Positions 42,001 through 62,654 of a stretch of 64,000 nucleotides of DNA are shown here, piece by piece. The notes below the pieces were generated by a model. The model did not search any database, had not been told where the DNA came from, and worked only from the letters and a program-made list of their open reading frames with translations. The DNA is taken from IMG/VR virus record IMGVR_UViG_3300030019_000001; one strand, 5' to 3'. The DNA is from a virus. Taxonomy: Duplodnaviria > Heunggongvirae > Uroviricota > Caudoviricetes. The position numbers and the translations under genes were made by a program. The number at the start of each line of letters is the position of its first letter. Positions within the stretch are counted from its first letter, which is position 1.

Positions 42001-42080
42001 GCTCCTATGGTGGAATTGGTATACACGCATCACTTAAGATGATGTCCATTTGGATGAGGTTTCGAATACCTCTAGGAGTA
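42001..42080 (+). tRNA. tRNA-Leu (anticodon UAA), class II
   Basis: Acceptor GCTCCTA/TAGGAGT, 3-bp D stem GTG/CAC, anticodon stem CATCA/TGATG, loop CTTAAGA, variable hairpin TCCATTTGGA, T arm GAGGT-TTCGAAT-ACCTC. Confidence 0.7.
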
Positions 42081-42088
42081 CAAAATAT

Positions 42089-42175
42089 GCCGATGTGATG
42101 GAATCTTGGTAGACATTCAAAACTTAAAATTTTGCAAGCTATATGCTTATACGGGTTCAAGTCCCGTCATCGGTA
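42089..42175 (+). tRNA. tRNA-Leu (anticodon UAA), class II with long variable arm
   Basis: Acceptor GCCGATG/CATCGGT, anticodon stem CAAAA/TTTTG, loop CTTAAAA, T arm ACGGG-TTCAAGT-CCCGT. Confidence 0.6.
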
Positions 42176-42184
42176 CAAAAAATC

Positions 42185-42272
42185 GCTCCTGTGATGGAAT
42201 GGTAGACATCCATGTTTTAGAAACATGTGCTGAACAATAGTAGGCGTGTCGGTTCAAGTCCGACCAGGAGTA
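42185..42272 (+). tRNA. tRNA-Leu (anticodon UAG), class II
   Basis: Acceptor GCTCCTG/CAGGAGT, anticodon stem CATGT/ACATG, loop TTTAGAA, T arm GTCGG-TTCAAGT-CCGAC. Confidence 0.65.
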
Positions 42273-42376
42273 CAATATATTCAATGATTAATCATTATGA
42301 TACAATTTATTTAAAAATATGTTCAATTTTTATTCTTTTTGTCATAGAATTTTTTATATATAAAATAAAAAATAAT

Positions 42377-43474: not shown

Positions 43475-43475
43475 T

Positions 43476-43548
43476 GGCTTGGTATCCCAACGGCAGAGGA
43501 CGGCGTTTCAAATGCGTTTCAGTGAGGGTTCGAATCCCTCTCAAGCTA
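43476..43548 (+). tRNA. tRNA, class I, anticodon uncertain (best fold gives CAA)
   Basis: Acceptor GGCTTGG/TCAAGCT and a clear T arm GAGGG-TTCGAAT-CCCTC. The anticodon stem is weak (GGCGT/GCGTT with G-U pairs). Confidence 0.5.
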
Positions 43549-44091
43549 CACATTAAATTTCTTTGATGCTATAATTGATTTCATATCATTTATATCGCTT
43601 GACCAATATTTCATTGAATCATCATCAGTTTGAACAATTCCTGTGCCATCGTGAGGACCAGGATTCATTTTTTTAACCTTATAATCAATTGAAGCCCATC
43701 TAAAATTTTCAACTCTTTCTTTCTTTATTACTTTACACAATTCCGTATTATCCCAACCAAGCAGACAATAATCTCCAACAGATGGCAGATTTTCCAGATC
43801 TTCAATTTTTTTAGAATAGCTTTTTATTTGTTCACGTTTAACTAAAAAATTATTATTCCACAATTCATATTTATCAAATTTAACGTTATAGTGTTCTGTA
43901 TGTTCATTATATCCAATTATTTTACCTATTCTATATTTATAGTCTGTGTCATTTTCTCTAGGTATAAAATATTCAGGTATTTTAGATTCATAGAAATCTT
44001 CATCAAGTCTAACGTAATCATTTATTTCTGGTTCTGAATCACGTGTAAATTCTTTGGTATCGTAGAATTCGAATTTTTTAATATGTATCAT
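43546..44091 (-). CDS. array A member (MIHIKKFEF... / ...ASKKFNV)
   Basis: 181 aa ORF with a 4-nt overlap to the upstream member. Confidence 0.5.
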   Translation of the reverse strand: MIHIKKFEFYDTKEFTRDSEPEINDYVRLDEDFYESKIPEYFIPRENDTDYKYRIGKIIGYNEHTEHYNVKFDKYELWNNNFLVKREQIKSYSKKIEDLENLPSVGDYCLLGWDNTELCKVIKKERVENFRWASIDYKVKKMNPGPHDGTGIVQTDDDSMKYWSSDINDMKSIIASKKFNV

Positions 44092-44462
44092 ATGTTAAAT
44101 TTTTTTGCGTATATTCTATATTGAATATTATCATATATATCATCAAATGGTATAACTAAAAAATTATCTATTGATAGCATATTTTGCATATAATCAATAT
44201 TATTACCCCATCCTCGTGTGGAAACAGCAATTATAAATATATGTGTATTATTTGGATAATTTGACACATCAACAATTATTGAATAAAAACCTTGTATTTT
44301 TACATCATTTCTTATAGTGTGTTCATCACTTTGACTTAGATTATATTTTTTGAGTTTATCAATAACTTGATCTGTTTGTTCATCTGTTATGCCTTTAATA
44401 TTTATTGCAAACCTGAATTTAGTTTTAGAACTTTCATTAATGAATTGATTATATTTTTTCAT
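44088..44462 (-). CDS. array A member (MKKYNQFINE... / ...YAKKFNI)
   Basis: Bounded by the conserved junction repeats. Confidence 0.5.
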   Translation of the reverse strand: MKKYNQFINESSKTKFRFAINIKGITDEQTDQVIDKLKKYNLSQSDEHTIRNDVKIQGFYSIIVDVSNYPNNTHIFIIAVSTRGWGNNIDYMQNMLSIDNFLVIPFDDIYDNIQYRIYAKKFNI

Positions 44463-44875
44463 ATGTTAAATTTTTTTGCATGTATTTTATATTGATAATC
44501 TTTCATTTCTTCGTCTGTTAGGTGTCTAACATATCCTGTTGGTACCCATCCTAAGAAATCATTATCTTCTATATCAGATAGTGAATTTCTTAATACATAC
44601 CCATAATACCATACATAATCAACTAGAACATATTCTTTACTATAATCATTATCAGTAAATTTGTCAGTCGTCTTTTTTTCATTATGTCTATTATATAATA
44701 CAGAGTCTAATTTTTCAATATATTCTTTATCTAATTTAACTATATCTCCATCATACACTCCAGTCTTAAATCCTGGTCTTTTTATGTAAAAAATAGGACC
44801 ATATGTTTCATCTTTTGTTGATTCTCTTTGCCATATATCTTTTGATTCATTAATGAATTGATTATATTTTTTCAT
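44459..44875 (-). CDS. array A member (MKKYNQFINE... / ...HAKKFNI)
   Basis: Bounded by the conserved junction repeats. Confidence 0.5.
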   Translation of the reverse strand: MKKYNQFINESKDIWQRESTKDETYGPIFYIKRPGFKTGVYDGDIVKLDKEYIEKLDSVLYNRHNEKKTTDKFTDNDYSKEYVLVDYVWYYGYVLRNSLSDIEDNDFLGWVPTGYVRHLTDEEMKDYQYKIHAKKFNI

Positions 44876-45237
44876 ATATTAAATTTATTTGTATTATTTC
44901 TTGCTTCAAGATATTCTACAATATCTTTAATTCCATTTGATCTAGCATTTAACAATTCTTCAGGTTTAATAATATTTATAATATAATCTTCATCATAACC
45001 CCAATCAGGTGTTGTAATACACCAAGTAGTTATTTTATTGTTACTTATATCTAAAACCAATGTATGAGGTTTATTACTATATGACGCATATTGACTTATA
45101 ATATCATAAATGTCAAAATATTTTTTGAATATTTCATTGAGCTTATATAAATCGTCATCTGTGATATTTTTAATATCTATTGAAACTTTAAATACATCAG
45201 AATTTTTTTCATTAATGAATTGGTTATATTTTTTCAT
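44872..45237 (-). CDS. array A member (MKKYNQFINE... / ...NTNKFNI)
   Basis: Bounded by the conserved junction repeats. Confidence 0.5.
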   Translation of the reverse strand: MKKYNQFINEKNSDVFKVSIDIKNITDDDLYKLNEIFKKYFDIYDIISQYASYSNKPHTLVLDISNNKITTWCITTPDWGYDEDYIINIIKPEELLNARSNGIKDIVEYLEARNNTNKFNI

Positions 45238-45665
45238 ATATTAAATTTATTTGCATCTTTTTTTACTTTATAAAGAGTTTCAACTCCTTTCAATCCAATT
45301 TTAATAAATTCATCTAATGAAATAATTAAATTATCACTACTACGAAGATCAGTAGATCTCATTTTAAAGAAATCAATTGTATCTCTTGGTATTCGTACAT
45401 TACCCCAACTCTCATATACATTAATATACCAAAGCCATTCAATTTCTGTATTTTTAAAATCATCAATATTTGATTTAGTTATTAATAAATTTTTTATATT
45501 ATGTGATTCTAAATTTACATATTTATTAAATTCTTCAAATGCTTTACTTTGGTTTTCTTCTGTCGCATTTTCTAATAATATAAAAAAATTAAAATTAAAA
45601 TCATTGGTTTTATTATCTTTACCGTATGCTCTATTTTCATTAATGAATTGATTATATTTTTTCAT
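45234..45665 (-). CDS. array A member (MKKYNQFINE... / ...DANKFNI)
   Basis: Bounded by the conserved junction repeats. Confidence 0.5.
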   Translation of the reverse strand: MKKYNQFINENRAYGKDNKTNDFNFNFFILLENATEENQSKAFEEFNKYVNLESHNIKNLLITKSNIDDFKNTEIEWLWYINVYESWGNVRIPRDTIDFFKMRSTDLRSSDNLIISLDEFIKIGLKGVETLYKVKKDANKFNI

Positions 45666-46129
45666 AAATTAAATTTTTCGGATTTTTTTATAGTTAGATA
45701 TTTTTGATATTGTTCTGGATATTCTTCAATTATATTAATCTTATTAATTGGTAGTAAATACGTCAAAAAATCATTACCCAAATTATCTTTTAAGTTCCAA
45801 TTAGCATTAGCTTCTATTAAAAATCTTACTATATCATTGTTTTCTCTTAATGTAGCATAATTTAATGCTGTTCTATTATAGATATCTTGATAGTTTATAT
45901 CAGCTCCTTTTCCTATTAAATACTTCACCACATCTATCCTATTGTTATCTGCTGCTAGTATTAATAGTGTATATCCATATTTATCTATATTATTCACATC
46001 ACCTTTTTCAACTTCTATATATTCTTGTACAACTTCTAAATCTCCTCTTCTACAAGCTTCAAATACACTATCATCACTATTAAAAAAGATATCAGAATAT
46101 CTATCTTCAAATTTTTTTATAAATTTCAT
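45662..46129 (-). CDS. ankyrin-repeat protein (MKFIKKFED... / ...KSEKFNL)
   Basis: GYTLLILAADNNRIDVVKYLIGKGADINYQD...TALNYA...NDIVRFLIEANAN. Confidence 0.6.
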   Translation of the reverse strand: MKFIKKFEDRYSDIFFNSDDSVFEACRRGDLEVVQEYIEVEKGDVNNIDKYGYTLLILAADNNRIDVVKYLIGKGADINYQDIYNRTALNYATLRENNDIVRFLIEANANWNLKDNLGNDFLTYLLPINKINIIEEYPEQYQKYLTIKKSEKFNL

Positions 46130-46743
46130 ACAGTAGTTTTATTTTTAAGTTTAGATATAGCTTTCTGAATTATATCAATTGTTAGATTATTAATTTCAAG
46201 AATATTAAAATCTCCTTCAATTTCTGTATTATGAGGGTGTTCAATTTTAATTGATACTTTACTTAATGGTTTACTTCCAATAACTTTTTGAGAATCATCT
46301 ATTAATATATCAGCATATTTCCATTTATCCATTGATGAATTAGCAAAAATGATGTCATCGTATTTAAATCCATAATGGTCTAACCATTTCTTAGCAGATT
46401 CTTTAGATTCTTCAGTAGGTTGTTTAGTTACTATGTTTAATTTGAAACCATGAGTTTTTATAAAATCATATATATTGTTTATAGTATCAACAGCACCTTT
46501 ATATGGTTGAGCAATATCAAAAACTTCAGATTTTTTATTATTAAACCATGTTTTTGATGATTCACCATTATAGTCCATTGTTTCATACCAATGCCAATTT
46601 TGATCCTGATTTATTTCTTTATCAGGAAAGTATCTTTTATATAGTGTATTGTATGCATTAACGAAATCACATATCGTACCATCAATATCTATTCCTATTG
46701 TAATTTTATTTGTAAATGTTTCAAACATTTTTATGTGTTTCAT
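46126..46743 (-). CDS. HAD-superfamily 5'(3')-deoxyribonucleotidase-like hydrolase
   Basis: N-terminal ITIGIDIDGTICDF is a DxDGT motif I. Embedded in array A with an MKHIKMFETF leader. Confidence 0.5.
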   Translation of the reverse strand: MKHIKMFETFTNKITIGIDIDGTICDFVNAYNTLYKRYFPDKEINQDQNWHWYETMDYNGESSKTWFNNKKSEVFDIAQPYKGAVDTINNIYDFIKTHGFKLNIVTKQPTEESKESAKKWLDHYGFKYDDIIFANSSMDKWKYADILIDDSQKVIGSKPLSKVSIKIEHPHNTEIEGDFNILEINNLTIDIIQKAISKLKNKTTV

Positions 46744-47009
46744 ATATTAAATTTATCTGTATTTTTTTTTAGTTTAACATATTGTTGTAATTTTCTTTTG
46801 TTATCTGAAAAATCTAATAGATAAGATTTATTTATATTAAGTCCTAGATTTGTTTCATATGAATCCCAATATATATTTATAATTTTATGAACTGTATAAT
46901 TGTATAGATTATTCATTTTTACATCATATGACATAGGACAGTCAAAAATTACATAATCACCTACTTTTGGTTCATCTTTTTTATTTTCAAATTTTTTTAT
47001 ATATTTCAA
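46740..47009 (-). CDS. array A member (MKYIKKFEN... / ...NTDKFNI)
   Basis: First gene of the minus-strand array. Confidence 0.5.
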   Translation of the reverse strand: MKYIKKFENKKDEPKVGDYVIFDCPMSYDVKMNNLYNYTVHKIINIYWDSYETNLGLNINKSYLLDFSDNKRKLQQYVKLKKNTDKFNI

Positions 47010-47117
47010 GATTTTAAATTATTTTATATATTATATATAAATTATTGAGATATTATTTATAAAAAAAGTAAATTATATTTTTTTTATATATAAACAATAA
47101 AAAACAATTTAAAAATA

Positions 47118-48028: not shown

Positions 48029-48099
48029 ATTGTTATTGAATAAGATGTGTTGATATTTTATTTATTTATTTTTATATATAATAAAAAACAATTTAGAAT

Positions 48100-48565: not shown

Positions 48566-50377
48566 ATGAGCAAACAATTAATTAATATTGGCTCATCTCC
48601 AAACGATGGAACTGGAGATAATTTAAGAGAATCATTCATTAAAATAAATTCCAATTTTAATGATGTTTATTCTTTTACAGGATATACAGGTACTTCTGGA
48701 ACATCAGGAATAAACGGAACTAATGGCACATCAGGAATAAACGGAACTACAGGTACTTCTGGAACTTCAGGTTTAAATGGATCTTCAGGAGGAGCATCAG
48801 TAACTAATGTTACATATAGTGAATTATTAGATTTGATAAATACTTTATCATTAACTATTGGTACACAATATTTAATTACTGATTATAGTACAGTACATAT
48901 AATTCCATATACTAGTGATTTAAATTCAGGTATAACTGAACCATTATTAGTTACCGCAATTGGATTAGATAAATTGAAACCAGAAGCTCATTCTTATTTA
49001 TATTCACAAGATGTAATTTATTATAATTTTAATAATAATCAAACAGTTGTACCAGGATGCACAACTGGCTATATTTACAGAAGAATTGATACAATACAAA
49101 ATAACGATTTTCCTTTTGATTTTAGAAATGTTAAATTTAGAAGATGGCAAATTAATGTTACAAATATATGGAATTCAGGAACAACATACAATTCCAAAGA
49201 TGTTGTATTATTTTCTGAAACCAATCAAATTTATATTTGCATAAAAAATAATACAACAAATATAAATCCAAATAATAATGATGATTCAAATGGTATTTGG
49301 CAGTTATTTGAGTATTATAATCTATCTTATATAAGTTGTACTGAATATAATCTAATTTTTGGTGATATAACCATGCCATGTTCAACAGGATATACTGATA
49401 GTTATATGTGGAGTGATTTTGACTACTATTATTCAACATCATATTCAAATATAATTAATATATCTGAATTAAACTCAAATATAATAAATGGATCAAATAA
49501 TGTTATATTAGGTGTCAATTTCAGAGATAATAATATAAATGTGAATTTCTATAACAATACTATTGGTAATGATTTTAATAACAATACTATTGGTCGTAAT
49601 TTTATTGGTAATAGTATTAGTGATAATTTTAAAAACAATTTAATTGATGATAATTTTAAAAACAATTCTATTGGAGATACATTTCAGGCTAATTCTATTG
49701 GATATGAGTTTAAATATAACTCTATTGGTTCTGCTGGCTCATATAATAAAATTGGTAGAATATGTAATAATAACATTATTAGTACAGAATTCACTGGAAA
49801 TAATATAGGTGATAGATTCTATAATAATATGATTTGTAAATCTTTTTCTAGTAATACACTTGGTGATGACTGTTATAATAACGTTATCGATAGCAATTTT
49901 AATGCTAATGTCATTGGAAACAATTTCAACATTAATATTATAAATACAGAATTTACCCGTAATTCTATTGGAAATACGTTTCAGATTAATTCTATTGGAA
50001 TACAATTTTTATATAATAATATAGGAGATTTTTTTACAAATAATATAATTGCTGATCATTTCACGTCAAATAGTATAAATTCATCTTTCTCTAGTAATAA
50101 CATTTCCAATTTATTTACTTCAAATAACATAGGTAGTACATTTGATTCAAATATAGTAGGTATTGGATTTACAAATAATAGTATTGGAAATTCTTTTAGA
50201 ATAAATACAATTTCTGATTATTTTCAAATGAATAGTGTTTGTGATAATTTTGGAGGATTAGATTTTACATTAGCAAGTTACGTATATTTACCTTATACAA
50301 AAGAATTGTATGTTGATGATACAAATACTAAAAAATTACAATATAATAGAATGATAATTGTAGATGCAAATGCATAA
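48566..50377 (+). CDS. collagen-like (G-X-Y) plus nonapeptide beta-helix repeat protein; tail-fibre-like
   Basis: GTSGTSGINGTNGTSGINGTTGTSGTSGLNGSSGG triple-helix repeats, then ~25 copies of an xxNxIGxxF 9-residue repeat. Confidence 0.55.
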   Translation: MSKQLINIGSSPNDGTGDNLRESFIKINSNFNDVYSFTGYTGTSGTSGINGTNGTSGINGTTGTSGTSGLNGSSGGASVTNVTYSELLDLINTLSLTIGTQYLITDYSTVHIIPYTSDLNSGITEPLLVTAIGLDKLKPEAHSYLYSQDVIYYNFNNNQTVVPGCTTGYIYRRIDTIQNNDFPFDFRNVKFRRWQINVTNIWNSGTTYNSKDVVLFSETNQIYICIKNNTTNINPNNNDDSNGIWQLFEYYNLSYISCTEYNLIFGDITMPCSTGYTDSYMWSDFDYYYSTSYSNIINISELNSNIINGSNNVILGVNFRDNNINVNFYNNTIGNDFNNNTIGRNFIGNSISDNFKNNLIDDNFKNNSIGDTFQANSIGYEFKYNSIGSAGSYNKIGRICNNNIISTEFTGNNIGDRFYNNMICKSFSSNTLGDDCYNNVIDSNFNANVIGNNFNINIINTEFTRNSIGNTFQINSIGIQFLYNNIGDFFTNNIIADHFTSNSINSSFSSNNISNLFTSNNIGSTFDSNIVGIGFTNNSIGNSFRINTISDYFQMNSVCDNFGGLDFTLASYVYLPYTKELYVDDTNTKKLQYNRMIIVDANA

Positions 50378-50412
50378 AAAAATAGCAGATTAACAATCTG
50401 CTATTTTTTTAT
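50376..50412. terminator. bidirectional intrinsic terminator
   Basis: aaaaaa-atagcagatt-aaca-atctgctat-ttttttt. Confidence 0.8.
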
Positions 50413-50999
50413 AAATTAAATTTTTTAGAATCTCTATACAACGGGTCATATTCAGTTCTAATTTTATCATACTCACTTAAAGTTGTTTGCCATATATATT
50501 CAAAATTTTCAACATATTCAAATGTCATAGCCATGTTAATAAATACATCATGATCGTTTATACATTTTTTTATAAATAGTTTTCCTTTGCCAATAACTGA
50601 GCTTATCAAATCTGAATAACCGTCATCTGATGGCATAAAAATATTATATTTCTCATCTAGCCAAATTGGTTTAAAATAATTAAAAAGTTCTTTATACAAT
50701 TTTTCATATTCATCATAAAAACTCATAATAGTATCATATTCAAAATTTTTAAATACTCTTATTTTCAACTTGAAATTTTCTGTTTTATTCTTCTGTCCAA
50801 TATTATTTCTACTCTTAATAATTTTATTCCAATCAGAAATTTTTATAAATTTCCAAAAAACTTCACTATAATTATTAACATCAGGTTTAATAAATCTAAT
50901 ATATTCGCCATTATCATTCATTGATATCAGAGAATTGTTTTTATCATAATAATATGAGTTATTATCTGAGCCTTCAAAAATTTTAAAATTTGTTATCAT
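50409..50999 (-). CDS. array B member (MITNFKIFEG... / ...DSKKFNL)
   Basis: 196 aa ORF. Confidence 0.5.
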   Translation of the reverse strand: MITNFKIFEGSDNNSYYYDKNNSLISMNDNGEYIRFIKPDVNNYSEVFWKFIKISDWNKIIKSRNNIGQKNKTENFKLKIRVFKNFEYDTIMSFYDEYEKLYKELFNYFKPIWLDEKYNIFMPSDDGYSDLISSVIGKGKLFIKKCINDHDVFINMAMTFEYVENFEYIWQTTLSEYDKIRTEYDPLYRDSKKFNL

Positions 51000-51001
51000 G
51001 T

Positions 51002-52159
51002 TTACATATTAAATTTATCAGAATCTACAATAAACATATATTTATTGAATTCTTCTTTTATTTGTGAATCTAACCTAAAATTAGAGTTTAAGATATTTAA
51101 AGATTCAGCTATCAAATCACCTTTTTCATCTTCTGTGTCATCTTCATATCCATTTTCCTTTATATATTCTTCTATATATCTTTTTTGAAAATCATATTCA
51201 TCTGAAATATCATCATTGTGAGTTCTTTTTTCTTCAAATAGTTCAAATAATAACAACGTTAGATTATCGGAGTCACCTGAATTATCCATTAGGTAATGTT
51301 GTATTTCTATACTATTTCCAATTTGTGATTCTACCCAACCATATTTTGAAACAGTATCTGTATTTCTTTTATAATATTCAACAAGTTTATTCTCATCTAT
51401 ATATACACTATAATTGTTATAAAAACCATTTGGTGTAAAATTATCAATCAATTCAACATAACTATCTACTCCTGTTTTTTCTGACATAACCTCAATGAAA
51501 GTGAGATATTCATATCTTTTGGTAATAGTTTCTTCTATAAATTCACCTTCTTCTGATTCATCTGTTATAATCTCTTGTAATTGATCTGAATCTAAATCAT
51601 CTAACATATCAGAATCATATTTCAATTCATCATTTTTTGCAATAATAGAGTTGGAACTAATTTCATCTCCATCTTCAACTACAACTGTAAAGTTATCAGG
51701 AATAATATATTCCTCCTTAGAATTATCCTCAGCTATTATAATTTTTTTGATGTTATCTTCCTCAATAATTGATACAATACCGTCATATTCAGATTTTATA
51801 ATCATATCATCATCATCATTATTATCATAATAAGATTCTATTATCTTATTTTCTTTAACTGATGTTAAATGATTATTAATATATTCTTTATATTCATAAT
51901 CATAAAAATCTCCAATATTTAGTTCTTTGACAGTTGAGTTAATGATATCTTGTATGTATTTATTATTATCAAAAACACTAGAAATTAAATTTGGATCATA
52001 AGTTAATATTTCTACAATATCAGATTCTGTTGGATTATCTAAATAATGTTCATCATAATAAGCTGATATATATTCGTCATCTAAAAAGTCATGTGACAAA
52101 TCATGTTTTGCGCTATCTGAACTTTCAAACATTTTAAATTTTTTGAAATTTGTTATCAT
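51002..52159 (-). CDS. array B member, acidic (MITNFKKFKMFESSD... / ...DSDKFNM)
   Basis: 385 aa, D/E-rich. Confidence 0.5.
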   Translation of the reverse strand: MITNFKKFKMFESSDSAKHDLSHDFLDDEYISAYYDEHYLDNPTESDIVEILTYDPNLISSVFDNNKYIQDIINSTVKELNIGDFYDYEYKEYINNHLTSVKENKIIESYYDNNDDDDMIIKSEYDGIVSIIEEDNIKKIIIAEDNSKEEYIIPDNFTVVVEDGDEISSNSIIAKNDELKYDSDMLDDLDSDQLQEIITDESEEGEFIEETITKRYEYLTFIEVMSEKTGVDSYVELIDNFTPNGFYNNYSVYIDENKLVEYYKRNTDTVSKYGWVESQIGNSIEIQHYLMDNSGDSDNLTLLLFELFEEKRTHNDDISDEYDFQKRYIEEYIKENGYEDDTEDEKGDLIAESLNILNSNFRLDSQIKEEFNKYMFIVDSDKFNM

Positions 52160-52267
52160 ACTATTTGTTTTATTTTGCTATTTTTTGCTGTTTTAATGAC
52201 ATCTAATGTCATAAATTATATCATTCAATTGATTTATCAGTTATATTATTAAATCTATAAAAACTCA

Positions 52268-53089
52268 TTACAAATTGAATTTATTGGTGTCATTAATAAT
52301 TTTCCAATTATTATAATAATCATCACTTAATACATTTGAATATTTATCTAATATTTCATAAATACCGTCTATATCTATTTGACTACTTTCACCTAAATTA
52401 TTAATAGTAGAATTTCTATCATATAAAAAATCTAAATTTTTATCTTTATCAATATTTGGAGTATAATAAGCATCAAAAATGTCAGTATCAAAATGAATAG
52501 AATATGTCAATTTTTTAGTTTTTAAATTGTAATATTGATGTATCTTTAATATCCAAGCTAATTTATCATTGTTAATATTGAATTTATTAAAATTATATAC
52601 AATAGTATCAATGTGAAAATTTCTATCTAGTTCATAATATAAATTACCTGGATTTTTTAATAATTTATCAAAATCATTATTATATTTCATTTTTACTACA
52701 ATATCATTAAAATATTTTGATATATTTTCATCTTTATTGATGTGTGAATTTATATCATACAATTTAGAAAAATAAAGAATTTTTTCTATTTCAGATATTT
52801 CTGATTCGAATTTTTTTAATATTCTAATATTCTCTTCTTTTTTGAATTTTTCACGACCTATTTTTTTGATATGTCTTTTTAGTTCTTTTTCTTTTTCTTC
52901 TAATCTTTTTCTATTTTCAGGATCATAATCTTGATATTTTTCTTTTGCAACATCAAGTCCTTTATTACCAATCAAATTCAAAAATTTAGTATATAAATCT
53001 GAATTCTCTTTTTTTACGTTATCTAAAAACTTGGCATTTTCTTTGTCTTGTAATATATCAAACACTTTAAATTCAAATATCTTTCTCAT
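52268..53089 (-). CDS. array B member (MRKIFEFKVFD... / ...DTNKFNL)
   Basis: 273 aa ORF. Confidence 0.5.
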   Translation of the reverse strand: MRKIFEFKVFDILQDKENAKFLDNVKKENSDLYTKFLNLIGNKGLDVAKEKYQDYDPENRKRLEEKEKELKRHIKKIGREKFKKEENIRILKKFESEISEIEKILYFSKLYDINSHINKDENISKYFNDIVVKMKYNNDFDKLLKNPGNLYYELDRNFHIDTIVYNFNKFNINNDKLAWILKIHQYYNLKTKKLTYSIHFDTDIFDAYYTPNIDKDKNLDFLYDRNSTINNLGESSQIDIDGIYEILDKYSNVLSDDYYNNWKIINDTNKFNL

Positions 53090-53092
53090 TCA

Positions 53093-53443
53093 TTATATAT
53101 TATATTTGTGTGTGTCATTTGTAAATTCTGGAACATAAAAATAATCTAGAAAATTTGGCAACTCATTGTAATTATTATTAATGTCAAATTCTTGCATTTT
53201 TTTAGTATCATCAAAAAACATAATAACTTTATTCATACATTCAATAGGCAAATAATTATTTATATTATATTTTTCAATTGATTTTTCAGCATCACCATAA
53301 AATCCAGCTACCTTATAACTATTTCCTTTTTTAAAAATTACATTTCTATCTTTATATTTCTTGTGATAATTTTTTATACACATCACATAATCATCAATCA
53401 TTCTTAAATCTGGATTTTTATATGCTTCAAATATTGTTATCAT
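53093..53443 (-). CDS. array B member (MITIFEAYKNPD... / ...DTHKYNI)
   Basis: 116 aa ORF. Confidence 0.5.
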   Translation of the reverse strand: MITIFEAYKNPDLRMIDDYVMCIKNYHKKYKDRNVIFKKGNSYKVAGFYGDAEKSIEKYNINNYLPIECMNKVIMFFDDTKKMQEFDINNNYNELPNFLDYFYVPEFTNDTHKYNI

Positions 53444-53445
53444 AA

Positions 53446-53811
53446 TTAATTGTCTTTATTATTTATAGTTTCTATTTTATTAATAGTGTAATTGATTAAT
53501 TCTTCATTTGATTTAAATTCAATAAATGCCATTGGCTCATCTTTTATGTTGAAATTTTTAATTTTTATTATCCATTCATCATAATTCAATCCTATAAAAT
53601 TATAAATATTTTTTATACTTACAATTATATCATTAGATATTAAATTAAAGCAAACATAAAATATTGCTTGCCTATCTTGATATTCATATTCTATTACTAT
53701 ACTATCAAATTCATCATTCTCAGTAAAAAACATTTCTACTAAATAATTACTTAATATTTTAGCTCTAGATTGAAGTTTAGAAATATTACAATTAAATTCA
53801 TCAATATTCAT
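53446..53811 (-). CDS. array B member (MNIDEFNCNIS...)
   Basis: 121 aa ORF with a TAATG overlap to the upstream gene. Confidence 0.45.
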   Translation of the reverse strand: MNIDEFNCNISKLQSRAKILSNYLVEMFFTENDEFDSIVIEYEYQDRQAIFYVCFNLISNDIIVSIKNIYNFIGLNYDEWIIKIKNFNIKDEPMAFIEFKSNEELINYTINKIETINNKDN

Positions 53812-54152
53812 TACACATTAAATTTATTTGTATCTAAATATAAACTATATGCATTTTTTGCAGCTTCAATAGTATCATAAGATGATATAACATAAACCTC
53901 ATTAATAGTTAATATATCAGTAGATTTAATATCGAAATGAAATTCTTTTACATCCCATATATAAAAATCAAGATCAACACGATTAAGATCATTTATATTA
54001 TTAAATTTTGCAAGATAAAAATCTTTTTGATATCTAAATATTACAAATTTACCATAATATTTTTTATAATCTAATTTTTTATCAATCATATTTTTGTTGA
54101 TTTTTTTTATAGAATCTTCAATAGCATTTTCAAAATTTTTAATGTATTTCAT
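53811..54152 (-). CDS. array B member (MKYIKNFENAIED... / ...DTNKFNV)
   Basis: 113 aa ORF. Confidence 0.5.
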   Translation of the reverse strand: MKYIKNFENAIEDSIKKINKNMIDKKLDYKKYYGKFVIFRYQKDFYLAKFNNINDLNRVDLDFYIWDVKEFHFDIKSTDILTINEVYVISSYDTIEAAKNAYSLYLDTNKFNV

Positions 54153-54230
54153 TTAATATAGATATTTTCAATATATATAAAATAATAATTATAAAAACTT
54201 TTCTTGCTATTTTTTATATAAAAATAAAAA

Positions 54231-54624: not shown

Positions 54625-55209
54625 TTAAACATTAAATTTACTTATATCAATTCTCAAGTCTGAATTTTCCTTATATTTTGGAAATTTGTTAGTTACATAT
54701 TTTTCTATCTCATCTATATAATCATCTTTGTGACTATTAAATTTCTTAAAATCTAATAAACAATCATAGAAATTTTCACCATCACTATTTTTAATATCAA
54801 GATCTAATCCAGCTTTTAAAAATTTTTCTAATAACATAATAAATGTACCAGCATCATAGAAATAAGATAGATATTTTATTATAGCTGTTTCTCCGTTTAT
54901 ATCTTGAATATTCACATCAGCCTTTGCATTTAACAATTTGTTAATTACTATTGGAGTTGAAGCCATCATCAATGCTGTATTTTTATTCTTGTCTGTTTCA
55001 TTAACATCAGCGTCGCCTTCTATTAAAGCATCGACAACAAATGGAAATTTAATAGCGTGCATCAATGCTGTTTTACCATCAGAGTCTTTCATATTAACAT
55101 CAACTCCTTCTTTTATCGCTTGTTTTACTACACTAGTACTTCCTCTTTTTGCAGATGATATAAATGGTGGTTCCTTTACTGATCTTTCAAATAATCTTAA
55201 ATATTTCAT
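54625..55209 (-). CDS. ankyrin-repeat protein (MKYLRLFERSVKE... / ...DISKFNV)
   Basis: GKTALMHAIKF...VVDALIEGDADVNETDKNKNTALMMA...LLNAKADVNIQDINGETAI. Confidence 0.6.
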   Translation of the reverse strand: MKYLRLFERSVKEPPFISSAKRGSTSVVKQAIKEGVDVNMKDSDGKTALMHAIKFPFVVDALIEGDADVNETDKNKNTALMMASTPIVINKLLNAKADVNIQDINGETAIIKYLSYFYDAGTFIMLLEKFLKAGLDLDIKNSDGENFYDCLLDFKKFNSHKDDYIDEIEKYVTNKFPKYKENSDLRIDISKFNV

Positions 55210-55279
55210 ATTAAACTGTTAAATTTTTATTATAAGTGTATATATAAATTTTCACAATTATAAAATAATATATACTATC

Positions 55280-55816
55280 ATGAAATATTTAAAGCAATAC
55301 GAAGCATACATTGAGATGTATTTAGATGATGATGATCAATTAACATTAATGAAAGAATATCTTGATAATGAAGATTTATCAAAAATAAATAAAATATTAA
55401 ATAGTGGATTTGATCCTAATACAAAATATGGAATTCATCCTGTAATATACGATCTTCAAGATAAAAATAAGGACAAATCAAATTCTAATATATTAAAATC
55501 ATTTATTGAACATGGACTAGATAATAAAATCATTACAATTTTTTTATATAATGAATTAAATTGGACTAGATATGCAGTAGATAAATTAAATCTATTAGAA
55601 ATATCTAAAATTTGTATTAAGTCTGGAGCAGATTTATTTTATGATTATGGTTTGTATAGTGATTTTTTTGATATGATCGAAAAAAAGAAAACAACATTTA
55701 AATCATTATTCACAGAAAAATTTGTGAATGATTTAATGAGTATCATTAAAGAAGAAGCTTCAGAGCAATATGACAAATATATAATACAAAAAAACTCAAA
55801 AAAATTTAACATATGA
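55280..55816 (+). CDS. ankyrin-like protein (MKYLKQYEAYIEMY... / ...NSKKFNI)
   Basis: Paralog of 55813..56361. Confidence 0.5.
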   Translation: MKYLKQYEAYIEMYLDDDDQLTLMKEYLDNEDLSKINKILNSGFDPNTKYGIHPVIYDLQDKNKDKSNSNILKSFIEHGLDNKIITIFLYNELNWTRYAVDKLNLLEISKICIKSGADLFYDYGLYSDFFDMIEKKKTTFKSLFTEKFVNDLMSIIKEEASEQYDKYIIQKNSKKFNI

Positions 55817-56361
55817 AATATTTAAAAACCTATGAAAAAATGATGACATTAGAGTTAGATATTGATGATCAAGAAGAATTGATGACAAAAGCATTAGAAT
55901 ATAATAAAATTAATCTAGTAAAAGGACTTCTTGATAATGGATTTGACCCAAATTATATTGTAACACACTATGGTGTACCTCTATTACTTTATCAATTATC
56001 TGATAACACAACAAAATTGGATATTGATATATTAAAATTATTAATAGACAAAGGAGCCGATGTTAATCTTATGATAAATGGATCACCTTTAATCTCTGGT
56101 GCAATAACTTTATATCACAGAAAAAGTACAGATAAAGAATATAGAGATAAATATTTAGAAGCTATCAGATTATTTATTAAATCTGGCGCAGATTTAACAG
56201 CAAGAGACGATGAAAAAGAAAATTCATTTGATACAATTCAAAATATGATAGATTATGGATATTTTAAACCTATTTTTACAAAAAGATTATTGAAGATTAT
56301 TGAAGAAGAAGCACCAGAACAATATGGAATTTACATAACATCTAAAAAGTATAATATATAA
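55813..56361 (+). CDS. ankyrin-repeat protein (MKYLKTYEKMMTLE... / ...TSKKYNI)
   Basis: LVKGLLDNGFDPNY...LLIDKGADVNLMINGSPLISGAI. ATATGA overlap with the previous gene. Confidence 0.55.
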   Translation: MKYLKTYEKMMTLELDIDDQEELMTKALEYNKINLVKGLLDNGFDPNYIVTHYGVPLLLYQLSDNTTKLDIDILKLLIDKGADVNLMINGSPLISGAITLYHRKSTDKEYRDKYLEAIRLFIKSGADLTARDDEKENSFDTIQNMIDYGYFKPIFTKRLLKIIEEEAPEQYGIYITSKKYNI

Positions 56362-56395
56362 AAAAAAATCCTGATTTCTCAGGATTTTTTTTATT
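56360..56395. terminator. bidirectional intrinsic terminator
   Basis: aaaaaaaa-atcctga-tttc-tcaggat-tttttttt. Confidence 0.8.
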
Positions 56396-57857
56396 TATCG
56401 ATAAATAACTTATTATCAGGGGGCCAATGTATATGTGGCGCTTCCATTGTGTCAGTAATTACCCACAATATTTTTTCAAAGTATTTAGGAATACCATATT
56501 TAAATTTGTCTGGTACTGTACCTGCTGCATCTGTAAAATATATTACAAACGAAGGAATAGTTCCTTTTTGTATTAGATTCTTTTCAATCCATTGGAAAGG
56601 TGGAACAAAACTTGTACCTCCACCACCTTTTGCTTTGAAGTGTCTACCAAGAATTTCCTTAAATTTACCTTCATTCATTGAATCTCCGCTCTTTGTTCTA
56701 AGATTAATTCTTTCTATTCCTTTCACTTCATCATCACACCATATAATTATAGCTTCTTCAATTTTCTTTGAACCAAAAATACCATAAATTTCAGATGCAA
56801 ATCTACCAAGTGTTTCATCTCCAATTGATCCTGATGTATCAATACACAAAACTATTGTTCTGAATCCACTATCTTTAGGATATTTCAATCCTGGTAAATA
56901 CAATGGATCATCTTGTCCAATAAATCTTTTATTAAAATAACCATATTTAGGATTACTTGAAAAACATTTATTCATAAATTTAACTAATGATGCTTTCCAA
57001 TTGACTTTTGGTTTTCCAATTTTGTTAAACCATCTATTCAATGATTGAGATCCAGTTCCTTGATTATTACTTTTTGCATTATTTAATATTTCTCCCCATT
57101 TTTTTGCTAAATCTTCTGGACTTTCCATTTTGCTTAATTCATCACTACCATCGAATAATGTTGCACCTTTTTTATCATTTAAACTACCTGGAGCACACAA
57201 ATCACCTGCACCTGGAATTGAACTACCTGGCTTTCCTTGACCCTGCCCTGGTTTACCTTGTCCTGGTTTACCCTGACCTTCACCTTCTCCATCACCTTCT
57301 CCATCACCTTCTCCTTTTTTCTTTGGTTTCGCTTGCTCTTCTTTTTCAAGAATTACATAGATTTGCTCTGCACTCATATCACGATATTTTTCATCTAATA
57401 GAATATTTGTTGGTACTCTTAATATATCAGGTTTACTTGTTGCACCGTCAGGAGTTTCTTTACTCATATCAGATATTTGAAGATTAATTGCATAATCTGC
57501 TGCTTGATTCCATAAATCATGATTTCTGTTACCTTGTCTCATAAAGTGAAGATTTGCATTGTGCATAACTTCGTGTATCAAAACAAATGCTACTTCCTCT
57601 GTGTTTTTTAATACATTGTTAACAAATTCAGGATTATATAAAATATTTTGCCCATCAGTAGCCATAGTATTTATACCACTTCCTGGTGATGCTTCTGCAA
57701 TATTTAATTGAAAGAACAAATCTGCAAAGAAATTATAGTAAGCCATAACAGATGTTAAAGCTGCTCTTACTTTACCTTTAGCCATTTTGTTTAATTTTGG
57801 ATCAGTAAAATCTTCATTTATACCCAAAAAACTAAATGTATTGAATTTTTTTATCAT
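56391..57857 (-). CDS. VWA-domain protein with N-terminal HExxH metallopeptidase-like domain (MoxR-associated, DUF2201-like)
   Basis: FVLIHEVMHNANLHF carries HExxH. MIDAS motif IVLCIDTSGSIGDE. A low-complexity GEGDGEGDGEGEGQGKPGQGKPG linker separates the two. Confidence 0.65.
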   Translation of the reverse strand: MIKKFNTFSFLGINEDFTDPKLNKMAKGKVRAALTSVMAYYNFFADLFFQLNIAEASPGSGINTMATDGQNILYNPEFVNNVLKNTEEVAFVLIHEVMHNANLHFMRQGNRNHDLWNQAADYAINLQISDMSKETPDGATSKPDILRVPTNILLDEKYRDMSAEQIYVILEKEEQAKPKKKGEGDGEGDGEGEGQGKPGQGKPGQGQGKPGSSIPGAGDLCAPGSLNDKKGATLFDGSDELSKMESPEDLAKKWGEILNNAKSNNQGTGSQSLNRWFNKIGKPKVNWKASLVKFMNKCFSSNPKYGYFNKRFIGQDDPLYLPGLKYPKDSGFRTIVLCIDTSGSIGDETLGRFASEIYGIFGSKKIEEAIIIWCDDEVKGIERINLRTKSGDSMNEGKFKEILGRHFKAKGGGGTSFVPPFQWIEKNLIQKGTIPSFVIYFTDAAGTVPDKFKYGIPKYFEKILWVITDTMEAPHIHWPPDNKLFIDK

Positions 57858-57879
57858 TTTTATTTTTTATTTTTATTAA

Positions 57880-59415
57880 TTATTCTCCTGCCATAGTTTT
57901 TTGTAATACTACATGCCATTTTTTAGCAAAATCTAACCATACATCTTGATATTCAGTTTTAATATATGGATGTGCTTTTACAAAATAAGATGCAATAGCA
58001 ACAATTGCTTCATTTTCTTTACCTCTTGTAGCAAAATCATATACATTTTTAACTTCTTCCTTAGAAATATGTTTACCTTGTTTAAAAGTAGCAATAGCAA
58101 TTGAGCAAGCTCTAATTTGATCTTGTCTAGTTGGCCATTTTACATTTTTAGATTTTTCATTACCATCATAAATATCTTGTATATCTTGTTCACTAAAGAA
58201 CTCCTGTAATTTCATATAATTAACAAAATCCATAGCTGATTCTAATCCTACATATTTAGTGTATATTCTTTGAATTTCTGGATATGTTAATTTATTTGTC
58301 CAATCTTCATCTCTCTCATTGAATTCATCCTGTGATGCCATTTCCCATGTTCTTGGTGATGCCCAACCTGGACTTTTAGATTCTTTATCCAATCTATGAA
58401 AGTAATTAGGATGATACTGTAAATATGAAATAAGAAATGGATCAATGTCTTTTCTTGTTAATGCATATTTAACCCAATCTTCAACTGATGGTGAATAATT
58501 CACATGAGCAAAACGATTCCACAAAATAGGATCATCTGTCAAATCAGTAGTATCAATATCTTCTTTTCTATTGCCTGCTGCAATAATAATCCATCTTGGA
58601 GGTAAATCATAATCACCATGTTTACCACTTAATGCTAATGCCAATGATGCACTAAGAACCATTTGTGGTGCTCTGTTCATTTCATCAAAAAACATAATAC
58701 CACCTTTACCATTTCCATCACTAGTTGGAAATATCGCTGGTAATTTAGAAACAGTTTTATCATTTTCAATTTTAGGTACTCCTCTAAAGTCTGTAGGCTC
58801 AATTTGAGATAAATGCCATTCTTGAACAACAATATCTAAATCCTTTGCTACTTGATGTAATATTTCTGTTTTACCAATACCAGGAGCACCCCAAATAAAT
58901 AATGCATGTGTTTTTTTTCTAGCAAATTCTGAACCTTTATCATAGTTCTCTTGTTCATGTTGACCTGCTCTATGTAAATTCATATTATAAACTCTCTTTA
59001 TTCTTTCTTTAAGTTTCTCTACATTAACATTTCTCATTACTTCTTCATCTCCACTTGGATAATTCAACGTTACCATTGCTTCATCTACACTAGTTTCATT
59101 TTCAATTCTATCACCTTTTTCATTAAATCTTGAACGTATTTCAGATTCAATTTCTTCTGCTGTAGGCGTTTTAGCACCTTTCATATTATCAAGATAACCA
59201 TCAGGAATAATTACTTCTACAACATCCCTAGTTTTGCCATTCTCATCTACATAAGTTGGTATTTCTCCTTTATCTTTTAAATATTTTGAATAATATAGCC
59301 ATGCATTTTTACCAAATTTTGTTTTGAAAAAACCATATAACTTATTCCACGCATTTTTTAATAGATTTTCATTTAATTTATATTCTTCAGAATAACTATC
59401 ATATTTCTTTATCAT
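57880..59415 (-). CDS. MoxR-like AAA+ ATPase, paralog 1
   Basis: Walker A IWGAPGIGKTEI, Walker B GIMFFDEMNRA, sensor IIAAGNR. Confidence 0.7.
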   Translation of the reverse strand: MIKKYDSYSEEYKLNENLLKNAWNKLYGFFKTKFGKNAWLYYSKYLKDKGEIPTYVDENGKTRDVVEVIIPDGYLDNMKGAKTPTAEEIESEIRSRFNEKGDRIENETSVDEAMVTLNYPSGDEEVMRNVNVEKLKERIKRVYNMNLHRAGQHEQENYDKGSEFARKKTHALFIWGAPGIGKTEILHQVAKDLDIVVQEWHLSQIEPTDFRGVPKIENDKTVSKLPAIFPTSDGNGKGGIMFFDEMNRAPQMVLSASLALALSGKHGDYDLPPRWIIIAAGNRKEDIDTTDLTDDPILWNRFAHVNYSPSVEDWVKYALTRKDIDPFLISYLQYHPNYFHRLDKESKSPGWASPRTWEMASQDEFNERDEDWTNKLTYPEIQRIYTKYVGLESAMDFVNYMKLQEFFSEQDIQDIYDGNEKSKNVKWPTRQDQIRACSIAIATFKQGKHISKEEVKNVYDFATRGKENEAIVAIASYFVKAHPYIKTEYQDVWLDFAKKWHVVLQKTMAGE

Positions 59416-59447
59416 CTTATTATATTTTATTTTTATTATATATATTT

Positions 59448-60872
59448 TTAAATATTATCACCTCTTCTAAGTTTACCATCTTTACCTTCTTTCTTTCTTT
59501 CTTCTTCACGTTCCTTTTCGTCTAATTTCATAAGAAAGTTTACAAATGCAGTTGCACTAGCATATCCAACAAAATCTTCATATATATCTTTTACTTCATT
59601 ATATGACAATTTGTTTTTCCAATCAAATCCTCTTTCAAAATAATCTTCTTCTGATGCCATTTCCCATGTTCTTGGTGATGTCCAATTTGGTGCTTGATTA
59701 ACAGTTTTTAATCTATGATAATATTCTGGATTTTCTTTAATAAATTGTATAAGTTTAGGATTAATTGATTTTATATTTTTTGCATATCCAATCCAATCAG
59801 ATGGTTTTGGGGCAAAATTGATATGTTGAAATCTATTCCACAAAATCTTATCTTCTGTTAAATCTCCTGTACTTAAATCTGAACCTCTATTACCTGCTGC
59901 AATAACTATCCAATATTGAGGCAATTCATAACTACCATGTTTACCACTTAATGCTAATGATAATGATGCATCAAGAACCATTTGTGGTGCTCTATTCATT
60001 TCATCAAAAAACATTATACCACCTTTTCCGTTTTTACCATTGCTGGTAGGAAATATTGATGGTAATTTCCAAACAGTTCTTTCATCTTTTGAATCATCAG
60101 AGCCCATAATATTTTCAATTCTAGGAATACCTCTAAAGTCAGTAGGCTCAATTTGTGATAAATGCCATTCAATTACAGCAATTTCCAATTCTCTAGCTAC
60201 TTGATGCAAGATTTCTGTTTTTCCAATTCCAGGAGCACCCCAAATAAATATTGCATTTGTTTTTCTTCTAGAATATTCTCTACCATTTTCTCCTTCTTCT
60301 TGATGCCTACCTGCTCTAAGTGCATTCATTTTGTAAAGCTTAATTACTTCTTTTTTTAATTCTGCAACATCATCATTAAGAACTGTTGGATCTGGATGCT
60401 CTAAACTTACAAATTCATCATTATCATCTAAAACGCTTTCATTCAAAAATAAATTCATCAAACTTTCTTTAACTTTCTCCAATTCTTCTATTTCATCATT
60501 TACTACTTTTTCTTCTTCATCATTATCACCAACAGTTTCATCTGATCCGTCGATGCCAGGAATTTCTTTTTCCTTTTCATCTTCTACTGTTTCATCATCT
60601 GGTTGAATTTCAGATGCTTCTATTTCTTCATCAGAAGGCAAGTCAGACGTTTTAGCATATCCTGGAGGACATATAAAATCTATACCTCTTGGTAATTTAC
60701 CCTTTTTCTGTAAATACAATGCATAATATACCCATGCATGTTTTCCAAAATGTTGTTTAAAGAAACCAATAATCTTGTTTAAAATATCAGAAAATACATT
60801 TTCATTTATTTTTACACTTTCATTTTCTCTATACTCTTTAGAAAAATGATCATAATTTTTTAATGTTTTCAT
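59448..60872 (-). CDS. MoxR-like AAA+ ATPase, paralog 2 (with acidic N-terminal insert)
   Basis: Same motifs as paralog 1 (IWGAPGIGKTEI, GIMFFDEMNRA, VIAAGNR), plus a D/E-rich insert. Confidence 0.7.
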   Translation of the reverse strand: MKTLKNYDHFSKEYRENESVKINENVFSDILNKIIGFFKQHFGKHAWVYYALYLQKKGKLPRGIDFICPPGYAKTSDLPSDEEIEASEIQPDDETVEDEKEKEIPGIDGSDETVGDNDEEEKVVNDEIEELEKVKESLMNLFLNESVLDDNDEFVSLEHPDPTVLNDDVAELKKEVIKLYKMNALRAGRHQEEGENGREYSRRKTNAIFIWGAPGIGKTEILHQVARELEIAVIEWHLSQIEPTDFRGIPRIENIMGSDDSKDERTVWKLPSIFPTSNGKNGKGGIMFFDEMNRAPQMVLDASLSLALSGKHGSYELPQYWIVIAAGNRGSDLSTGDLTEDKILWNRFQHINFAPKPSDWIGYAKNIKSINPKLIQFIKENPEYYHRLKTVNQAPNWTSPRTWEMASEEDYFERGFDWKNKLSYNEVKDIYEDFVGYASATAFVNFLMKLDEKEREEERKKEGKDGKLRRGDNI

Positions 60873-60945
60873 TCTACGAAATTATTTTTGTTTTTATATA
60901 TAAAAATTTATATTTCCTTTTTTAATAAAAATGAATAAATTTTAA

Positions 60946-61605
60946 TTATCTATTATAATGCTTACACTCAGATGAATATTTTGCTTGTCTCCATCTAATA
61001 TCATTCATTGTACCCCATGCTGTTTTACTCGATCCACCTTGAATTTGTGGACGACTACCTGAAGATATTTTTTCTGCTTTTTCTTTTGCATTCATTAAAT
61101 GCCATAATTTTTCTCTATCTGATACATTTTCAGATCCTGAATATTGTTCAATAGGAATTAACTCTTCTAAATCAAAATCAATATCAGAATTATAATAATT
61201 ATCAACATCCTCACTATATTCAGTTTTCATTATTTCTCCATTTTTTCTAACAACTTCTATTTTCCAGCCATTATTAAAAATTTTAATATTTAATTCATTC
61301 TCAATTTTTTTAATAATAGATTTAAATAATAATATGTTAGGATATGTCCAAAATGATATTATCTTATTATTAGTCCATAATCTACCAGGATAACATGGAT
61401 TATCTATTTCATGCCCAGCATTATAATGAGAATCAGTAAAATCTCCAAAATATACATTTATAACATTTGTGTGATTATCATTCACATCACAATAAAAAGG
61501 TTTAGAATCAGAATCATCCATATCACACAACTTATCACCATTCTTATCTCGTACATAACTTGGATTTTCTTTTAATAGTTTAAAATTTTCAAATTTTTTA
61601 ATCAT
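60946..61605 (-). CDS. hypothetical protein (MIKKFENFKLLKE leader)
   Basis: 219 aa, directly upstream of the MoxR pair. Confidence 0.5.
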   Translation of the reverse strand: MIKKFENFKLLKENPSYVRDKNGDKLCDMDDSDSKPFYCDVNDNHTNVINVYFGDFTDSHYNAGHEIDNPCYPGRLWTNNKIISFWTYPNILLFKSIIKKIENELNIKIFNNGWKIEVVRKNGEIMKTEYSEDVDNYYNSDIDFDLEELIPIEQYSGSENVSDREKLWHLMNAKEKAEKISSGSRPQIQGGSSKTAWGTMNDIRWRQAKYSSECKHYNR

Positions 61606-62648: not shown

Positions 62649-62654
62649 TCTTTG
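62647..62654 (+). promoter_or_regulatory. TAnnTTTG -7-like promoter element
   Basis: ttttttTATCTTTGtactc, 32 nt upstream of the ATG at 62679. Confidence 0.5.

Follow-up and report, generated by a model that had tools for sequence, protein, structure and literature searches.

A doubly tagged gene array of a probable T4-related megaphage and its likeness to T4 capsid targeting

Modular terminal tags on the genes of array B

The stretch of viral DNA considered here (64,000 nt of the IMG/VR record IMGVR_UViG_3300030019_000001, Caudoviricetes; hereafter "the window") holds, at positions 50409-54152, six tightly spaced minus-strand open reading frames (ORFs), which are referred to below as array B and whose coordinates, strand and termini, re-derived from the window, agree with a preliminary description of this DNA (Table 1). 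All six had been credited with the same conserved ends, which is true of five: these end in K-[FY]-N-[ILVM] (in the fuller form common to them, D-[ST]-x-K-[FY]-N-[LMIV]; "C-tag" below) and start with a leader of the MITxF or MKYIKxFE type ("N-tag"), whereas the ORF at 53446-53811 bears neither tag. The spacers, from low to high coordinate, are 2 nt, 108 nt, 3 nt and 2 nt, followed by a TAATG overlap, the 108-nt gap being the sole sizeable one, as had been noted. The earlier view of these genes as a second array built on the same logic as array A (43546-47009) stands, and the termini are common to the ankyrin genes at 54625-56361 as well, the three blocks totaling ~8.9 kb (about 9 kb had been given).

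Table 1. Coordinates of array B, its flanking signals and the other tagged genes of the window
Feature	Position	Strand	Detail
Bidirectional intrinsic terminator (A-tract, 9-bp core hairpin, U-tract)	50376..50410	.	closes array B and the convergent gene 48566-50377
Tagged putative cargo 1, DUF4240-like helical protein, 196 aa	50409..50999	-	MITNFKIFE ... DSKKFNL
Tagged putative cargo 2, very acidic protein, 385 aa	51002..52159	-	MITNFKKFKMFE ... DSDKFNM
Array B gap, 108 nt	52160..52267	-	palindrome 52196-52212; TATAAT(T) box
Tagged putative cargo 3, 273 aa	52268..53089	-	MRKIFEFKVFD ... DTNKFNL
Tagged putative cargo 4, 116 aa	53093..53443	-	MITIFEAYK ... DTHKYNI
Untagged ORF, lineage-specific insertion, 121 aa	53446..53811	-	starts MNIDEFN, ends NNKDN
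Tagged putative cargo 5, first gene of the operon, 113 aa	53811..54152	-	MKYIKNFE ... DTNKFNV
Putative array B promoter region	54153..54230	-	TTATATATA at 54172-54180, 20-28 nt upstream of the ATG
Array A, eight overlapping genes, seven double-tagged	43546..47009	-	four start MKKYNQFINE
NT5C nucleotidase in array A, N-tag only	46126..46743	-	Pfam NT5C, residues 13-178
Double-tagged protein, ankyrin	54625..55209	-	Pfam
Double-tagged protein, no Pfam ankyrin match	55280..55816	+	35% identical to 55813-56361 (BLASTP)
Double-tagged protein, ankyrin	55813..56361	+	Pfam; terminator after 56361
N-tag-only set	56391..61605	-	DUF2201 metallopeptidase/VWA (MIKKFNTF); AAA+ ATPases (MIKKYDSY, MKTLKNYD); 219-aa ORF (MIKKFENF)

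Compositional bias towards K, N, F and I, which the preliminary description had itself raised as a possible source of the shared ends, is ruled out by the counts at both termini: the C-tag motif closes 16 of the 115 ORFs of the window against 0.031 expected (Poisson P = 3e-38; the chance of K[FY]N[ILVM] at one fixed position, taken from composition, is 2.7e-4), and 16 of its 25 occurrences anywhere in the window proteins are C-terminal. The leader pattern, which was composed post hoc with the data already seen, fits 26 of the 115 N-termini against 2.9 +/- 1.6 in random internal segments. Furthermore, M1, I2, F5, F8 and the penultimate Asn are invariant among 13 homologues of the 50409-50999 protein reaching down to 38% identity, and the exchanges seen at the C-tag among orthologues are F/Y and I/L/V/M.

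What lies between the tags differs from one protein to another. When the array proteins were stripped of their 12 N-terminal and eight C-terminal residues and compared by all-against-all BLASTP, the trimmed cores showed no similarity to each other, the exceptions being the ankyrins and one array A pair, which means that the tags sit on diverse cargo and that the members do not form one family, as had been supposed; a tandem paralogous family is rejected, as the cores are dissimilar along their length and the tagged proteins split into many clusters. A census of the window and its related loci (viral contigs totaling ~790 kb; loci are L-numbered below) covered 1,061 distinct ORFs: both tags were found on 212, the N-tag only on 111, the C-tag only on 58 and neither on 680, and the 212 double-tagged proteins (median 120 aa; 76% with an isoelectric point (pI) below 7) make up 93 BLAST clusters. 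DUF4240-like, very acidic, SH3-like and ankyrin cores are among those that carry the tags. The consensus of the N-tag is M-K-[YH]-[IL]-K-[KT]-[FY]-E, with MITxFKxFE and MKKYNQFINE as variants, and that of the C-tag is [TAS]-[NKD]-K-[FY]-N-[IL]-COOH, the last residue being V or M as well.

The clearest single case is the 50409-50999 protein, whose match to DUF4240 (residues 46-160, E = 6.6e-4, under the Pfam cut-off) is the only one, and a sub-threshold one, that any array B protein has in Pfam and PHROGs. A profile search with its family among 1.84 billion representative proteins gave 347 matches, ~25 of which are full-length members with both tags, whereas the distant members match the core alone, some having the N-tag only and others no tag; within this single family, moreover, the leader switches between MITxFExF and MK[HY]LKxFE. 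Leaders that are present, absent or switched independently of the core are what one would expect of modular add-ons. The AlphaFold2 (AF2) model of this protein is confident (mean predicted local distance difference test, pLDDT, of 84; predicted template modeling score of 0.80), yet the stretch that is best conserved in the alignment, residues 1-14, lies below 50, a combination that is the signature of a linear motif and not of a fold element; a helix (186-193) is placed just before the C-tag, and no PDB entry matched the model in a fold search.

As to the other members, the one at 51002-52159, rightly singled out before as very acidic (pI 4.05, D+E = 25%), retains both tags in its orthologues in L007 and L011, and the orthologues of 52268-53089 in relatives end in KYNI and KFNI. 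The 53093-53443 protein, whose AF2 model is unusable (pLDDT 48), can be loosely aligned with a ~105-aa "VGDYV" family. For the untagged ORF 53446-53811, which matches nothing in Pfam or PHROG, no orthologue is present in L007 and L011, where the other five genes keep the same order and its flanking genes abut; its insertion point is the exact gene junction of the array. A word-indexed protein search returned very few candidates for the small array proteins.

Transcription signals, viral lineage and probable host

The palindrome in the 108-nt gap of array B (ATGACAT-CTA-ATGTCAT at 52196-52212) is present as previously described, but the operator or terminator role suggested for it is rejected: it has no U-tract, a three-way alignment with relatives shows no conservation of it, the gap folds no better than its shuffles (z = 0.02), and hairpins with 7-bp arms are common in the window (31, vs. 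~20 in shuffles). The conserved element of the gap in the same alignment is the TATAAT(T) box, which is possibly an internal promoter. The real terminator of the array is the one at 50376-50410, whose folding free energy is -16.2 kcal/mol (z = -5.2) for the minus strand and -16.7 (z = -6.8) for the plus, real terminators having been missed by a simple terminator scan because their A and U tracts pair.

Upstream of the array stands TTATATATA, which occurs 30 times in the window against 12.6 expected and lies 20-38 nt 5' of many operon starts (e.g., at 47031-47040, 48072-48081, 55239-55247 and 60894-60903); every tagged operon has it, as does that of the baseplate-like gene 48566-50377, and a similar motif is found ahead of the portal, protease and capsid genes in the relatives L119 and L153. 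The NAD ligase and ClpP genes have a host-type TAnnTTTG box in its place. We regard TTATATATA as a candidate phage-specific promoter, possibly a late one.

The host-type boxes, TATCTTTG (20788-20795, 30262-30269, 35086-35093, 39698-39705 and 62647-62654), lie 30-45 nt 5' of plus-strand starts (those of the NAD ligase and ClpP among others), often right after a terminator hairpin, and fit the Bacteroidota sigma-A -7 consensus TAnnTTTG; Shine-Dalgarno sequences are not visible upstream of the window starts, and these two features together make a Bacteroidota host probable. The T4-type baseplate and portal genes, together with terminators and promoters of bacterial type, exclude a giant eukaryotic virus. 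The clade probably consists of very large T4-related phages with ~23% GC that infect Bacteroidota.

The phage is known from metagenomes alone; in these, the family of the 50409-50999 protein is found on contigs of up to 711 kb from both fen and bog, and DNA coding for MKYIKKFE was found in 94 stretches of IMG/VR contigs (20-32% GC; contigs of up to 501 kb). The 596 Gb of bacterial genomes searched held just seven such stretches, none of the seven with a C-tag, and a cellular origin of the tag is rejected on these grounds. Blastn and tblastn searches with the region and with array A gene 44088-44462 against 50,697 phage records gave no useful match, LR756500.1 (462 kb, unannotated) being the sole distant relative among these records. 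In the more distant relatives L015 and L090, the N-tag is kept and the C-tag is absent, which makes the C-tag the younger, lineage-restricted part.

Two contigs binned as bacterial bear the MKYIKKFE leader: L176, from a Dependentiae metagenome-assembled genome (MAG) of Lac Pavin, and L171, from a MAG labelled Cellvibrionaceae, which has a GC content of 26% and N-tag-like starts on six of its 12 ORFs and is therefore probably a mis-binned phage fragment.

Likeness to T4 capsid targeting and the competing explanations

No function had been proposed for the arrays in the preliminary description; the observations favour modular tags for targeting, akin to the capsid targeting sequence (CTS) of phage T4. 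Comparison with the T4 sequences shows that internal proteins IPII and IPIII start with MKTYQEFIAE and IPI with MKTFKEF, and residues 4 and 7 of the T4 CTS serve targeting and residues 8 and 10 processing, according to a review of the mutational data (PMC9026906). The array A leader MKKYNQFINE has all four of these functional residues (Y4, F7, I8 and E10); of the 93 cluster representatives, 76 have I or L at position 4, 79 have F or Y at position 7 and 75 have Glu8, and the array B leaders MITNFKIFE and MITIFE show the same hydrophobic pattern shifted by one residue. Compared with the (L/I)-x-E cleavage motif, the leader contains I-F-E in three of the five array B proteins, M-F-E in one and N-F-E in one, and that of array A contains I-N-E. 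Moreover, the first 67 residues of the array A protein 44088-44462 match phrog_2667, "internal head protein" (E = 5.8e-5).

The relatives, fetched via the tag or the portal, supply the head genes: Portal_T4 is matched at E = 3.8e-61 and Gp23 at E = 7e-25, the latter with a T4-like KWKP(V/L)LE motif near its N-terminus, and a 790-aa protease-scaffold protein has Peptidase_S80/S77 matches and the gp21 catalytic motifs GEFDHP and VSSRAAG. Prohead proteases of the S80/gp21 type cleave after Glu (PMC5694885). L152 and L118 hold T4-type head genes together with homologues of window genes, and the window has a T4 gp9/10-like gene of its own (48566-50377). Tagged genes lie between or beside the portal and protease genes in L090, L119, L153 and L118, with a tagged homologue of the acidic 51002-52159 protein 3 kb from the T4-type portal gene of L118; the clade has T4-type head genes, and tagged genes occur inside its head modules. 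In L152 (1378-4467), homologues of the window's N-tagged AAA/VWA pair precede the genes for portal, protease and capsid by 5 kb, a hint that the pair may take part in assembling the head.

Taken together, the CTS-like leader, the PHROG match, the head genes of the clade, the placement of tagged genes in head modules and the common promoter motif suggest that array B may be a locus of head-packaged, injected cargo of a ~0.7 Mb, 23% GC, T4-related phage probably infecting Bacteroidota, an explanation that we consider about equally apt to prove right or wrong. The array B operon would then encode unrelated cargo proteins bearing two terminal tags that also mark the products of array A and of the ankyrin genes, along with hundreds of other small clade proteins. 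The N-tag would be the counterpart of the T4 CTS, a disordered or amphipathic leader that docks the cargo on the prohead scaffolding core and is cut off after the conserved Glu by a prohead protease of the T4/phiKZ type; the mature cargo would stay in the head with the DNA and enter the host at the next infection, where its diverse cores (very acidic, ankyrin, nucleotidase, SH3-like) might act on the host, e.g., against its defence systems. The same assembly machinery may read the C-tag as a further determinant, specific to the lineage, that acts either as an extra anchor or as a retention/ejection signal. We thus infer the loading, the cleavage, the injection and any specific role of the C-tag.

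The parallel with IPI, IPII and IPIII covers a leader of about ten residues on otherwise unrelated small proteins, hydrophobic or aromatic positions 4 and 7 with a Glu closing the leader, genes that (as those of T-even internal proteins) are clustered and variable among close relatives, and a T4-type portal, Gp23 and Glu-specific prohead protease. Several points, nevertheless, weigh against head packaging. T4 has some three to six internal proteins, whereas here 14-23% of the window ORFs are tagged and the tagged genes number hundreds, from more than 90 families, far above the few CTS proteins of T4; internal proteins of T4 are described as basic, and the tagged proteins are mostly acidic. At the putative site, where cleavage is predicted, P3 is K or T in most N-tags, not L or I. 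N-tags are carried by enzymes that are not obvious in a head (NT5C, a MoxR-type AAA and a VWA protein), and the analogy leaves the C-tag unexplained, since T4 internal proteins have no C-terminal motif. Head genes are absent from the 64-kb window, the link to a T4-type head being made via the clade relatives; none of the six array B proteins matches the internal head protein PHROG, and the promoter classes are built on motifs in DNA that is 77% A+T.

Other known systems resemble the arrays in part. Inner-body proteins of phiKZ, 201phi2-1 and SPN3US are likewise many different proteins packed with the DNA of large phages, and the clade protease matches Peptidase_S80, as do giant-phage prohead proteases; these S80 proteases remove propeptides after Glu (x-x-E), and the SPN3US paralogues gp53 and gp54 have identical N-termini (PMC5694885). 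In those phages, however, propeptides mostly exceed 100 residues with neither a common short tag nor a C-terminal motif, and the lineage described here, unlike the phiKZ type, has T4-like portal and capsid proteins. The C-terminal targeting signal of the HK97 protease and the cargo-loading peptides of encapsulins are short C-terminal peptides that direct proteins to an HK97-fold shell, which makes them alike, by description and with no sequence similarity to be expected, to a conserved extreme C-terminus on unrelated cargo; here, unlike there, the C-terminal peptide is joined by an N-terminal tag, and its binding to a shell or scaffold is hypothetical.

Could the conservation lie in the nucleic acid and the peptides be mere by-products? 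The junction at which KFNI and a stop overlap the M-K-... of the next gene might be a coupling or initiation element for Bacteroidota ribosomes that do without Shine-Dalgarno sequences, or else a cassette recombination site, and 139 of 269 C-tagged genes do overlap the following start by ATGA, the last codon is NTA, as such an overlap requires, in 90% of C-tagged genes, one untagged gene is inserted exactly at a junction, and AAC serves as the codon for 47% of the penultimate Asn residues vs. 11% of the other Asn residues of these genes (p = 2e-34; the codon comparison comprised the 212 double-tagged genes of the window and loci L007-L096). The C-tag, however, also stands at operon ends before terminators (50409 and 56361) and on 60 genes with no start close downstream, the distance to the next start in array B ranges from overlap to 3 nt, the F/Y and I/L/V/M substitutions are conservative for the amino acid yet alter first codon positions, and the N-tag variants are far apart in DNA with the hydrophobic pattern kept; the AAC bias is the same with or without an overlapping downstream gene, and codon use at the tag K, F, Y and E is that of the background. 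A junction element as the main cause is, for these reasons, rejected as highly improbable, and the tags exist, are modular and are under selection at the protein level. The AAC preference possibly reflects selection for accuracy at a critical residue, an RNA-level constraint being another option, and the invariant Asn with this preference could even speak for a chemical step (cleavage or cross-linking) rather than mere binding. Stop-codon recoding and a polyprotein were rejected as well, all three stops being in normal use with no suppressor tRNA found.

Two further explanations accept that the peptides matter and assign them another reader. It seems rather unlikely that the tags are docking handles for a non-capsid partner (such as a hub protein or a site on the membrane or nucleoid, or else one another, by homo- or hetero-oligomerisation of amphipathic helices at the N- and C-termini) that gather effector-like proteins in the infected cell; the amphipathic-helix pattern of both tags and the helix modelled just before the C-tag would suit this, as would the KK[FY]N core that both tags have in common, their great abundance and their presence on NT5C, AAA and VWA enzymes, whereas the match to the CTS positions, the conserved Glu and the placement in head modules would be left unexplained, and the type of N-tag does not covary with the variant of C-tag, which rejects a direct pairing specificity between the two. 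Quite unlikely, in our estimate, is that the tags serve an AAA+ protease assembled around the phage ClpP, as degrons or as peptides that tether adaptors, by which tagged proteins or the host targets bound to them would be removed in a timed manner. The ClpP gene is full-length (35131-35886, PF00574, E = 1.7e-54) and follows a host-type promoter box, the tags are terminal with the N-tag predicted to be disordered, and ankyrin and other binding-type cores would suit adaptors; ClpX signals (ssrA LAA, MuA RRKKAI and the SspB XB peptide) are also short terminal peptides read by one machine, with one class, that of MuA, consisting of a basic stretch followed by a hydrophobic C-terminus, and with the adaptor SspB tethering by its C-terminal XB peptide. 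Still, the window has no ClpX/ClpA-type unfoldase (its two AAA proteins, which are paired with VWA, have their matches in the general AAA family and in the dynein-related AAA_5), the CTS-like positions and the linkage to head modules would again go unexplained, and to our knowledge, an invariant Asn with an aromatic residue is absent from Clp signals of the LAA and RRKKAI classes. We also know of no precedent for more than 90 families being tagged for destruction, which is unlike any degron set.

Neighbouring genes and what the tags may mean

The gene convergent with array B (48566-50377) encodes a 603-aa protein whose N-terminus is like that of T4 gp9/10 and which also has a G-T-S-G run resembling collagen and ~20 degenerate N-N-x-I-G-x-x-F repeats; it is probably a baseplate or fibre protein and diverges faster than its neighbours (42-50% identity in relatives vs. 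65-80%). On the far side of array A, four tRNA-Leu genes (taa, taa, tag and caa; 42001-43549) flank a 415-aa LAGLIDADG/HTH homing-endonuclease-like ORF (42227-43474) that overlaps the third of them, while the fourth abuts the end of the array; in T4, ipI likewise adjoins a tRNA cluster. Homologues of another homing-endonuclease-like ORF (7497-8300; PHROG 12131 and 3339) occur in 21 of the head-gene loci centred on the portal in relatives (L112-L169; e.g., L116, L130, L131 and L141), and large endonuclease-like ORFs break the portal-protease interval in L090, L118 and L119.

The DUF2201/VWA gene and the two AAA+ ATPase genes lie at 56391-60872, the VWA protein bearing a low-complexity insert of G, E, D, K, P and Q, and ClpP has a 48-residue N-terminal extension and stands in a context without head genes. 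The 385-aa protein at 9360-10517 has S1 RNA-binding domains (E = 5.6e-22) and may be relevant to translation in a host that does without Shine-Dalgarno sequences. Finally, a second family of tandem small genes, at 21319-22176, start with MKYKVGDI, overlap by 11 nt and end in another conserved sequence, K-x-K-L-x-x-L-N/H-E-I, a C-terminus whose likeness is also seen on a few small ORFs (18004-18246, 23126-23389 and 40654-40899).

The N-terminal principle is already known from T4. A full-text literature search with the motif strings and DUF4240 found nothing relevant, and no counterpart of the C-tag was found among known signals; the scale, the presence of a C-terminal K-[FY]-N-hydrophobic motif alongside the leader and the occurrence in megaphages therefore appear to be undescribed. 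The broader proposition, that a clade of ~0.2-0.7 Mb T4-related phages marks more than 90 protein families with a CTS-like leader and a new C-terminal signal for capsid loading and delivery, is a tentative one that we put forward with some doubt. If true, it would be by far the largest arsenal of injected effectors of any phage, and one readable from sequence: if the tags do direct loading, a list of the proteins that uncultivated megaphages inject could be drawn up from their genomes, hundreds of candidates for host takeover and anti-defence (possible DNA mimics among the acidic proteins, ankyrins and a nucleotidase included) would come with it, and T4 capsid targeting would be extended from a few proteins to the scale of a genome, the C-terminal signal with its invariant Asn offering, in that case, a new handle for putting foreign proteins into phage heads. 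Even if the capsid has no part in it, two short motifs present on more than 90 unrelated families and confined to one viral clade would point to a single machine that reads them.

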